Part shown: positions 24,333-26,075 of the stretch, piece after piece
Layout: every line of letters begins with the position of its first letter
How positions within the stretch are numbered: the first letter of the stretch is position 1
DNA from: Planctomycetota bacterium
GTDB taxonomy: Bacteria; Planctomycetota; Phycisphaerae; WQYP01
Assembly (NCBI GenBank): GCA_021800165.1
Contig: JAJYZF010000004.1
Coordinates: 3,296-67,295 of the forward strand
Reading direction: 5' to 3'
DNA length: 64,000 nucleotides
Translations under genes and position numbers: made by a program
Notes under the pieces: model-generated
The model's database searches: none
Seen by the model: the letters and a program-made list of their open reading frames with translations, nothing else
What the model was told of the DNA's origin: nothing

Positions 24333-24411
24333 AAGAATGCCTCCAGATAAACCTTTTCAATAGGATACCGGCCAAAACCCAAACAGCCAACCTGTTGTGC
24401 AGTATTTGTTG

Positions 24412-24421
24412 CCCCCCCCCC
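24412..24421. repeat. Homopolymeric C10 (G10 on the coding strand) tract about 80-90 nt upstream of the small ORF/DUF4238 operon
   Basis: Read directly: g-cccccccccc-a. Confidence 0.5.
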
Positions 24422-24768
24422 ACAATTGGCAGATATGCTTCTGCTTTATCTCCTATTTTTGAATCTACATGAAAGGCAGTATCTCCGCCGCGTTTCGTGT
24501 TGGCCGAAAGGGCCCCAAAGCTATAACAATTCCAGCGGCCAGGATGGGCTGGCGGCAGCCGACCCCGGAATTTAATTCCATGGTCGCTCTTTTTTATATT
24601 TCGCTGCCCCCCAACATTGGCCCCCAATTCCTTCTCCGCCGCCTTGATTGGCTCATCGAGATTCCCTGGCGTGAGATTCCCAGTCGGCTTGATTTTCGGG
24701 CCGTGGAAGGCGATAATAATAATGGAGGCTTTGGCATGGGGTTCGCCCCGGTCATTGCCTTTACTTTT

Positions 24769-25677
24769 TTAATCTTCCTGATTGGCCCTATCCGATTGGC
24801 TCCGCAGATCATCCAAGTACGTGATTCCGTAAAGATCCCAATTTCCTGAACCATCAATTTTTGGCTTCTCGCCAACGAACTGCATGTCCTGAAGTTTGGT
24901 GGCATAGGGTGCGAGTTCCGCTCGTGCCGGTTGAGGCATCGGCGTACGCCGCCAACCCCACCCAAGCGTATATGCTGCCAAATCTGCGAGAAATACACCC
25001 GTAGTCAGTTCGGAGTGAACGAAGAACGGCTCGGGCACTATTCTGGCGCTGCGATAACGTCCATTTTGCGTTCCGAGAAAGTACGCGGCCATTTGTTGGA
25101 TTAGAACCTTGGCTTTGGTCTTCTCTAATTCGTCGAATACCACCAAGCCCCGCTCGTGCGGTGGCTGGCCCCCCAGCAGGTAAAAATATCGCTCGAAAAG
25201 ATACACATAATCCTTACGCAGCATTCCGGAATCGGGTCGCGGCGATTTTATATCCACAACCGAGGCGATAACCCGAACTTCGTAGCAAGCGGCGATATTG
25301 ATTACTTCATCGACGAACTTAAGCACTTGACGGCTGTATGCCACAAGTTCCCGCTCGGTTATGGCACTGGTGCCAGCACCGTTCTCGGCCGCGCTAATTC
25401 CCTTCGTCAGGGCGGAATGGGCAAGCTCGGGCAACTCGCTGTCCGCAATCTCAACGTGCCGTCCGGCGCTCCGGAACCGCTTCCGTTTCAGGAGTTTTTT
25501 TGCCTTTAACTCCGTTACTCGCAGGTTGCGAAGATAATCGCCAAAATAACCTTTTTCAGCCGCCCGGACAGCCTTTACCAGATTCCAAAGATTGGACTCG
25601 GACACCGCCACGCCCGCGAGCACCTCGCAGGGCATCTCGTGGTGATCGTGACCGCTTTCATCAATAAATAACAGCAT
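24769..25677 (-). CDS. DUF3800-family protein
   Basis: N-terminal MLLFIDESGHD (the DUF3800 iDESG signature). AAGGTGGAG RBS before the ATG at 25675-25677. The ORF-track GTG start is 11 codons upstream. Confidence 0.65.
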   Translation of the reverse strand: MLLFIDESGHDHHEMPCEVLAGVAVSESNLWNLVKAVRAAEKGYFGDYLRNLRVTELKAKKLLKRKRFRSAGRHVEIADSELPELAHSALTKGISAAENGAGTSAITERELVAYSRQVLKFVDEVINIAACYEVRVIASVVDIKSPRPDSGMLRKDYVYLFERYFYLLGGQPPHERGLVVFDELEKTKAKVLIQQMAAYFLGTQNGRYRSARIVPEPFFVHSELTTGVFLADLAAYTLGWGWRRTPMPQPARAELAPYATKLQDMQFVGEKPKIDGSGNWDLYGITYLDDLRSQSDRANQED

Positions 25678-25772
25678 CCGGAGCTCCACCTTGGCTATCG
25701 CTCTCCGCACGGGAAATTACAGCCGCGGGCAAGAAAATCTGGTGTTCTCAATCTATTCTCGGACGCCGGCCA

Positions 25773-26075
25773 TCACAGCTTCCCCCCCCCGCCAACGTCA
25801 GTTGCTTTTCCGCCCGCCTGTACCGTTGGATCGTCTGGATTTAATCCCGGGGCTACACCTTGGCCTTGTTGGTAGAGCGTGCCGATGTCGACCATCGCCA
25901 GCCCGCTCCCTGCCGCTGCGCCCTGGTGGAACCAAAGCATCGCCGTGGTGTAATCTTGGGGTACGCCAAGACCATAGGCATAAAGGTTGCCGATGTTGCC
26001 CCCGCCACGCCAAAATGCTCGTTGGCCCCGGCCCTCCGCGCCGGGTAAAATATGGAAATGATTTATCTCGACCAC
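25773..26075 (-). pseudogene. Sel1-repeat protein fragment
   Basis: GNLYAYGLGVPQDYTTAMLWFHQGAAAGSGLAMVDIGTLYQQGQGV is a Sel1/TPR-like repeat pair. Only about 100 aa remain and it overlaps the cysteine desulfurase remnant. Confidence 0.35.
25782..25790. repeat. Homopolymeric C9 (G9 on the coding strand) tract about 105 nt upstream of the DUF3800 start
   Basis: Read directly: t-ccccccccc-g. Confidence 0.5.

Follow-up and report, generated by a model that had tools for sequence, protein, structure and literature searches.

In Neisseria meningitidis, homopolymeric tracts placed between the −35 and −10 boxes act as promoter-spacer switches, a poly-G tract at porA and poly-C tracts at opc and fetA. 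Other tracts act as rheostats or by altering the spacing of an activator, among them the T-tract of Helicobacter pylori sabA, the C-stretch of Bordetella fim and the TAAA repeat of N. meningitidis nadA. In phase-variable restriction–modification (R-M) systems the repeats lie within the mod or hsdS reading frames and switch translation (PMC5909438, PMC7383803), and the poly-G loci of Campylobacter jejuni are mostly intragenic, recurrent across strains and variable within single cultures (PMC5380846, PMC8437040). Here we consider the long G/C runs in a stretch of 64,000 nucleotides (nt) from a planctomycete of the Phycisphaerae (GCA_021800165.1, contig JAJYZF010000004.1, positions 3,296 to 67,295; hereafter the window), and in particular two runs, T1 and T2, found upstream of genes with DUF4238 and DUF3800 domains. 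An earlier note had proposed that both are promoter switches, working by slipped-strand mispairing, of two neighbouring phase-variable defence loci. The explanation we regard as probable is a different one, that the runs are slippage-prone repeats which accumulate neutrally in weakly constrained non-coding DNA, the neutrality being something that we infer.

The window, with a G+C content of 55.6%, holds five G/C runs of at least 8 nt (on the plus strand one C10, three C9 and one C8), and the coordinates at which they had been reported are exact. T1 (24412–24421, minus strand) is a G10 on the gene strand, upstream of an operon made up of an open reading frame (ORF) of 89 amino acids (aa) and the DUF4238 gene, and lies 80–89 nt before the ATG at 24332. 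T2 (25782–25790, minus strand) is a G9 upstream of the DUF3800 gene, 105–113 nt before the ATG at 25677. These distances had been given correctly, as had the orientation of both runs with their downstream genes; the genes are on the minus strand, so that the runs are poly-G on the gene strand. A third run, G9 at 4081–4089 on the minus strand, lies 51 nt beyond the stop codon of a gene for a PilT-like ATPase and 380 nt ahead of the next gene start, with no promoter close by. The remaining two, C8 at 36090–36097 and C9 at 36197–36205 (both plus strand), share a repeat-rich 1.5-kb non-coding stretch between a DUF4411 gene and a tRNA gene.

Run expectations were calculated analytically, using order-0, order-1 and order-2 models for the whole window and a gene map, built from public gene calls plus long ORFs, by which 80% of the window (51 kb) is coding and 20% (13 kb) is non-coding. 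For the window as a whole, four G/C runs of at least 9 nt were observed against ∼1.0, 1.5 and 0.24 expected under order 0, order 1 and order 2 respectively (P ∼0.07 under order 1, a Poisson estimate; P = 1e-4 under order 2), and the whole-window excess thus hinges on the model chosen. Within the non-coding DNA the excess is real: there are five C runs of at least 8 nt where 0.54 are expected (9-fold, P = 2.4e-4) and four of at least 9 nt where 0.16 are expected (25-fold, P = 2e-5). All five runs of at least 8 nt are non-coding, and the 51 kb of coding DNA has none. The earlier note had conceded that its proposal would fail if such tracts were common throughout the genome and reads showed no length variation; the tracts are indeed common throughout the non-coding DNA here, though not in the coding DNA. 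Across ∼150 kb of related Planctomycetota loci (L021–L045), there is one run of at least 8 nt in total. The 120-nt zones ahead of start codons contain two of the five runs; 1.65 would be expected there by chance, because these zones make up 33% of the non-coding DNA, and there is therefore no enrichment of promoter-near positions. The lengths of the non-coding runs are bimodal, with three of 6 nt, none of 7, and then 8, 9, 9, 9 and 10.

On the plus strand, C runs outnumber G runs by 9 to 0 at a length of at least 7 nt and by 21 to 4 at a length of at least 6 nt. The non-coding base frequencies (C 0.296, G 0.251) account, by our estimate, for most of this strand bias, and a special mechanism behind the all-C runs was set aside since the excess of C over G is enough to explain them. 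Between 2 and 22 kb the GC skew is strongly negative regardless of gene strand; the C-run excess and the negative skew together suggest a replication-linked strand asymmetry. We also considered, and rejected, the idea that the runs adjoin a common motif or the end of a mobile element, as the flanks have no sequence in common beyond a chance 8-mer, CAACAAAT after T1 and CAACAAAA after the 4081 run.

Look-ups with the exact proteins found the same locus in GCA_027436015.1, GCA_021791375.1, GCA_027339985.1, a JGI metagenome, and ENA and Logan assemblies. These records, up to nine of them and all from one Phycisphaerae species, are 99.5–100% identical to the window. The runs recur with the same flanks in the NCBI metagenome-assembled genome (MAG), JGI, ENA and Logan records, are internal to contigs and have unique flanks; recurrence in separate records means that they are not assembly artefacts. 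The annotated sources of the relatives of DUF3800 are Phycisphaerae, Tepidisphaeraceae or Planctomycetota, and, taken with the matches to the locus, this assigns the runs to an environmental planctomycete.

The lengths of the runs were compared across these records. T1 is G10 in seven records and G11 in two (GCA_027339985.1 and ERZ27237285, which represent one lineage at 99.5% identity and differ from each other by single-nucleotide polymorphisms, SNPs). T2 is G9 in all nine contigs that cover it, and the 36197 run is C9 in all five covering records. The largest number of alleles is found at the 36090 run, far from promoters, which is C8 in four records, C9 in ERZ27237285 and AACACCCC in GCA_027436035.1. 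As a non-regulatory run has three alleles, length variation alone does not discriminate a switch. Seven A/T runs of 7–8 nt are invariant across records. In 12 kb of the diverged lineage, all three single-base insertions or deletions (indels) are homopolymer slips (G4 to G5, A5 to A6 and G10 to G11), which is general slippage rather than the action of a dedicated switch.

Run changes are seen at further non-coding positions. Between the DUF3800 stop codon and a terminator, a G5 of the window is G9 in L119 and a G6 of the window is G7 in L103. The variant lineage has an additional G10 (L005 871–880) within a longer remnant of a Sel1 gene, and L103 has a C10 (4071–4080; also L104 1376–1385) beginning 15 nt past the DUF4238 stop. 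Since changes of this kind occur at many non-coding positions, a one-base polymorphism is general to such runs and is not the mark of a switch. The C10 of L103 and L104 sits in a region of palindromic repeats of the AACTGAAAAC type, and in L103 it lies ∼125 nt ahead of a 23S-rRNA-IVP-family gene and a DNA methylase gene.

A sigma-70 scan of the window called no gene-strand promoter near T1 or T2, the promoter copy at T1 scoring 8/12, and the promoters were therefore inferred from related loci, as were the transcription starts of the DUF4238 operon and of DUF3800. For T1 we used L101 and L103, in which a small ORF is likewise followed by DUF4238 (76% and 66% protein identity to the window, respectively) and which share ∼330 nt of upstream sequence with the window although the gene further upstream differs. 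Their promoter, TTGACA-17-TATCCT, lies ∼30 nt before the start codon (10/12 matches in the promoter scan). The matching element in the window (24362–24390, minus strand) consists of a −35 box TTGGCT (24390–24385), a 17-nt spacer and a −10 box TATCCT (24367–24362); a GGAGG ribosome-binding site (24344–24340) and the ATG at 24332 follow. T1 ends 21 nt upstream of the −35 box and spans roughly −57 to −66 relative to the putative start of transcription; it is thus outside the −35/−10 spacer, the place at which classic switches act.

Just upstream of the −35 box is an inverted repeat (24391–24429, minus strand), and T1 lies in its spacer. The arms in the window are CCAATTGT(G) on the left (24429–24422) and CACAACAGG on the right (24399–24391), with 3 mismatches. 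L101 and L103 have ACC(A/C)ATTGTG and CACAATAGGT as their arms, with 18 nt in between, compared with 21 nt in the window and 22 nt in the G11 strain. There (L101 2420–2474 and L103 2560–2618) the repeat, which reads ACCAATTGTG, 18 nt, CACAATAGGT, abuts TTGACA-17-TATCCT, and the conserved repeat-promoter unit points away from the promoter of a candidate small RNA described below. T1 fills the start of the spacer and makes it 3 nt longer than in the relatives. At this position L101 reads GTATGTTTAG and L103 reads GGAGATTTAG where the window has G10, so that neither of the related loci recovered has a run at the T1 position. The surroundings of T1 have also drifted, from TTGACA in the relatives to TTGGCT in the window at the −35 box, and by the three mismatches in the repeat arms. 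A 103-aa ORF (24316–24627, minus strand) spans T1, but we do not take T1 to lie inside a gene; this ORF is not conserved, because L101 and L103 differ by indels that are not multiples of 3.

For T2 the comparison loci were L119 and L021, whose DUF3800 proteins have 92% and 86% identity to that of the window, together with L118 and 80 DUF3800 loci of other species. L119 and L021 share with the window only the last 75–110 nt before the DUF3800 ATG. This segment contains the inferred DUF3800 promoter region (25716–25746, minus strand), with a −10 box TGTAAT (25721–25716), aligned with TATAAT in L021, L118 and L119, and an upstream block AACACCAGATTTT (25746–25734), which has the form AACAC(C/T)AGATT(TT) in the window, L021 and L119. 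T2 lies 60 nt upstream of the −10 box and spans roughly −73 to −81 relative to the putative start of transcription; it too is not between −35 and −10, and is outside the conserved promoter block altogether. The run encodes the GGGG of the C-terminal …GGGGKL* of a decayed ORF upstream. In L119 the aligned bases are GCGGCTGGG and the ORF upstream there terminates in …AAGKL*, so that T2 appears to be a young run which came about through point changes in the tail of a dead gene. None of the 80 other-species DUF3800 loci shares the run, and L119, L021 and L022 all lack a run at this position. The nearest DUF3800 loci (relatives at 85–86%) have no G/C run of at least 7 nt within 3 kb, and a G run of at least 7 nt within 400 nt upstream was found in only four of the 80, all of them distant. 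We rejected T2 as a frameshift site of a longer Sel1 gene, since all three frames stop within 45 nt past the run. In contrast to T1, T2 has no inverted-repeat or regulator-site context.

Taken together, these observations lead us to propose that the five runs would arise, and change length, by replication slippage in the decaying non-coding DNA of a defence and toxin–antitoxin island and in other spacers of this Phycisphaerae genome. Long runs would persist only outside genes because runs of this length within a gene would cause frameshifts. T2 would have formed by the point changes noted above and T1 within the inverted-repeat spacer, and the proximity of the runs to the DUF3800 and DUF4238 genes would be largely incidental. 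The comparisons show that the runs are specific to this lineage, the relatives having mixed sequence at T1, and that in this genome group long G/C runs appear, grow and decay at many non-coding positions. The length of T1 could nonetheless shift the spacing of an upstream site relative to the promoter, and so alter the geometry between the two, a point that we put forward from the layout of the sequence.

Several points weigh against this proposal. The non-coding excess is strong (P about 2e-4), and in well-studied bacteria such an excess of runs often marks contingency loci. The bimodal run lengths could reflect selection as well as a slippage threshold. Between strains of 99.5% identity T1 varies in length, by exactly one base, while the seven A/T runs are constant, and it adjoins the conserved promoter of a family with proven anti-phage activity. 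A recently evolved switch is a possible reading of T1.

Other explanations were weighed against the same data. An origin by chance from the base composition of a C-rich strand, with no special mutational or functional cause, is compatible with the order-1 figures for the whole window (1.5 expected against 4 observed of at least 9 nt) and with the part that composition plays in the strand bias, but the 9-fold and 25-fold non-coding excesses, and the single run of at least 8 nt in ∼150 kb of related loci, make it quite improbable. Sequencing or assembly artefacts, such as poly-G read tails, are scarcely credible. Homopolymers are generally error-prone and a single 10/11 difference could be a consensus error; the runs, however, are contig-internal and uniquely flanked, they are identical across four sources (NCBI MAGs, JGI, ENA and Logan), and G11 occurs in two records that differ by SNPs, so that this explanation is effectively refuted. 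The model of the earlier note, with T1 and T2 as paired promoter switches, draws on the fact that both runs are at least 9 nt long, gene-oriented, within 115 nt of an ATG and next to defence-type genes. We consider it very unlikely, and T2 is the chief reason, since its position, its lack of variation and its absence from relatives all count against a switch: the run is G9 in every contig, even where DUF3800 is already frameshifted elsewhere, it sits in a decayed ORF tail 60 nt upstream of the inferred −10 box, and the 92% relative lacks it. In addition, neither run is within a −35/−10 spacer or a real ORF. What stands of the phase-variable reading is that the runs are real, of slippable length, over-represented in non-coding DNA and oriented with the genes downstream, and that T1 is 10 or 11 nt in conspecific strains; what does not stand concerns the positions of the runs, the constancy of T2 across the nine contigs, the evidence of the relatives, and the changes in length of runs at non-regulatory positions.

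A narrower version, in which T1 alone is a recently evolved modulator of the DUF4238 operon, either on/off or a graded ‘rheostat’, we hold to be unlikely, T1 being a candidate because it alone among the runs is placed where tuning of a promoter is plausible. One-base changes would alter the distance and rotation between the left arm, as a presumed regulator site, and the right arm with the −35 box, and transcription of the 89-aa ORF and DUF4238 would then change heritably and reversibly. The placement of T1 favours this: the run falls between the arms of a conserved inverted repeat, and the −35 box of a conserved promoter follows 21 nt downstream. Further points in favour are a spacer of 21 or 22 nt here against 18 nt in relatives and the presence of both G10 and G11 in conspecific strains. 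Anti-phage activity has been shown for a DUF4238 protein, defence genes are costly, and runs upstream of the −35 box do tune promoters at H. pylori sabA, Bordetella fim and N. meningitidis nadA. Set against these are the degraded repeat arms and −35 box of this lineage, G10 in all seven of the records from different samples, an 89-aa protein with no DNA-binding fold in its structure model, the non-regulatory 36090 run that is at least equally variable, and relatives none of which has a run at the T1 site. In its most specific form, with T1 as a newly evolved, slippage-driven switch or rheostat that acts through the spacing of an operator-like inverted repeat in a free-living member of the Phycisphaerae, we regard the idea as decidedly doubtful. 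Were it true, Planctomycetota would gain their first case of repeat-mediated phase variation, as far as our literature search goes, which yielded no account of phase variation from the phylum. T1 would also be a contingency locus caught soon after birth, with the mixed-sequence ancestor of the run retained in relatives, and the related loci would document the origin of such a switch in ordinary spacer DNA. Immunity genes that switch stochastically would then be a feature not only of host-adapted pathogens but also of an environmental planctomycete.

The gene content near T1 and T2 is consistent with a defence island, although apparently with the decaying remains of one. The genes are on the minus strand unless stated otherwise. 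The DUF4238 gene (22959–23996; Pfam PF14022, E = 1.2e-11, 45 bits against a cut-off of 27) is preceded by the 89-aa ORF (24063–24332), the first gene of its operon, and followed by a PIN toxin gene (22184–22639) with a small partner ORF (22639–22911). The DUF3800 gene (24769–25677; Pfam PF12686, E = 1.9e-11) encodes a member of an RNase H2-like family. Upstream of it are a 100-aa ORF (25773–26075) with 1.5 Sel1 repeats (Pfam Sel1, E = 1.9e-8) and the first ∼80 codons of a NifS/IscS-like cysteine desulfurase gene, interrupted by an in-frame stop (26054–26300, plus strand). The Sel1 remnant has T2 at its 3′ end and overlaps the cysteine desulfurase fragment, on the opposite strand, at its 5′ end; these back-to-back remnants (25773–26300) are signs of past insertions. 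An HNH gene (26306–27439; 332 aa and 26306–27304 in the public gene calls) cuts off the cysteine desulfurase fragment at 26306.

A single DUF4238 protein from an Escherichia coli P2 prophage hotspot gives strong protection against phage T7 (Rousset et al. 2022; PMC9122126), and the DUF3800 family has been linked to type VII retrons (PMC7736814). The description of the two loci as defence-type is partly borne out by these domains and by the islands of relatives, in which the DUF4238 gene is flanked by GmrSD, SNF2 helicase with DUF4391, N6/N4 methylase, ResIII endonuclease, KwaB or TIR genes; on the other hand PADLOC has no match for DUF3800, DUF4238 or the 89-aa ORF, and the window locus is decaying. 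It is without helicase, DUF4391 and methylase genes, and the Sel1 and cysteine desulfurase fragments flank DUF3800. In L005 and L006 (GCA_027339985.1 and ERZ27237285) DUF3800 is frameshifted by an extra A in the A5 run at 25554–25558, leaving a 221-aa ORF, and upstream of 25958 the two records carry a different segment, with a helix–turn–helix gene, in place of the window sequence. The DUF3800 protein has more than 1600 relatives, mostly from Planctomycetota. Only three relatives of the 89-aa protein were found among 5.8 billion proteins. The 89-aa protein has no Pfam match either, and its structure model (pLDDT 67) no significant match to a solved structure, the best Foldseek hit being ferredoxin-like at E 0.1. 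We had considered it as a DNA-binding regulator or autoregulator, and the model, which displays no DNA-binding fold, gives no basis for this.

In the operon form of the locus (L101, L103, L105, L106 and L114–L117), SNF2 helicase and DUF4391 genes are followed by a variable gene (GmrSD, DUF3800, DUF4209 or none), then by a DUF4238 or MauJ-like gene, and then by N6/N4 methylase and ResIII endonuclease genes. DUF4238 and the candidate small RNA occupy a variable slot of these operons. We found no paper that describes the SNF2/DUF4391/variable-slot arrangement, and a literature search on DUF4391 gave no helpful information.

This candidate small RNA gene (element 24500–24598, transcript ∼24534–24596, plus strand) lies in the spacer that separates DUF3800 from T1 and is antisense to the defence genes. 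Its promoter in the window is TTGGCC (24500–24505)-N16-TATAAC (24522–24527), and the scan gives TTGACC-16-TATAAT in L101 and L103 (11/12 matches). The corresponding promoters read from the sequence are TTGACC-16-TATGAT in L106, TTGACT-16-TATAAT in L107 and TTGACC-16-TATCAT in L114; the hexamers are kept while the spacer sequence is variable between loci. The ∼57 nt candidate transcript is nearly identical in L101, L103, L106, L107 and L114–L116 and ends in a terminator-like stem with a run of T6–8, after which conservation stops. It is always found directly after the last gene of SNF2 helicase/DUF4391 cassettes. Rfam has no match for it, nor for any family in 24200–26400, at E values up to 5, and a metagenome scan with a conserved 21-mer gave six matches, of which two are true relatives of the spacer element. 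The predicted fold has a closing stem and two hairpins. Support for it from paired changes is weak, all changes being one-sided with 0 compensatory, and the diverged copy in L119 breaks the closing stem. The conserved divergent promoter pair and the candidate small RNA may matter more for the regulation of the defence cassette than the runs do.

More widely, the region from 21000 to 35915 is a dense toxin–antitoxin and defence-type island, mostly on the minus strand, with the PIN pair, DUF4238, DUF3800, HNH, CsrA, a RES-Xre pair, TM2, a TPR protein, and a peptidase M78 gene (RmrA- and CapP-like PADLOC matches) with DUF4411. The 1.5-kb stretch that follows (35916–37400), in which the two plus-strand C runs are found, ends at the tRNA gene (37401–37473) and holds an ACTCCY hexamer microsatellite, three tandem ∼60-nt repeats (about 36600–36780), hairpins of the type TATCCCGATGTCTATCGGGA, and GCGGCCGCAGCCGC palindromes beside both C runs. 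GCA_027436035.1 ceases to be syntenic with the window at 36127, a ∼38-nt duplication is present in the same stretch in ERZ27237285, and the stretch may be an island boundary. A pair of 219-nt direct repeats that are 91% identical (15477–15695 and 21226–21443) encloses a 5.5-kb segment that carries GH116, GH172 and alcohol dehydrogenase genes.

The main value of the window is cautionary. Long G/C runs are a general property of the non-coding, decaying DNA of this genome, and for that reason proximity to a defence gene and a one-base difference between strains are insufficient to call phase variation. Measured against described contingency loci, the runs are of slippable length, they lie outside reading frames and core promoters (as far as promoters can be placed from conservation), and neither T1 nor T2 recurs at its locus in relatives. 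They resemble the Neisseria promoter-spacer switches in being G/C tracts of at least 9 nt, prone to slippage, oriented with their genes and close to a sigma-70-type promoter. The Neisseria tracts alter promoter geometry directly, whereas T1 is 21 nt upstream of a −35 box and T2 60 nt upstream of a −10 box. T1 is more like the rheostat tracts in lying between an upstream element, the inverted repeat, and a core promoter. In those systems there is a known binding protein or topological effect and expression was measured, whereas the promoter described here is predicted from sequence and the repeat is a putative binding site; unlike them, the window has degraded repeat arms and a run that is absent from related loci. 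As for the E. coli DUF4238 system, the gene downstream of T1 has the same domain and defence-gene neighbours in its relatives' islands, but that system is a single gene, whereas DUF4238 here is a sequence-based assignment, matches no PADLOC model and is paired with a conserved upstream ORF of 73–89 aa. The association of defence genes with hypermutable simple repeats, and the helicase/methylase/restriction operons in which relatives of the DUF4238 cassette sit, recall phasevarions and phase-variable R-M systems, although no ORF of the window contains a run of at least 8 nt. Finally, as in C. jejuni, the runs of the window are 8–11 nt long and over-represented relative to composition; in contrast to the C. 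jejuni loci, all of them are non-coding, lineage-specific and mostly constant across samples.

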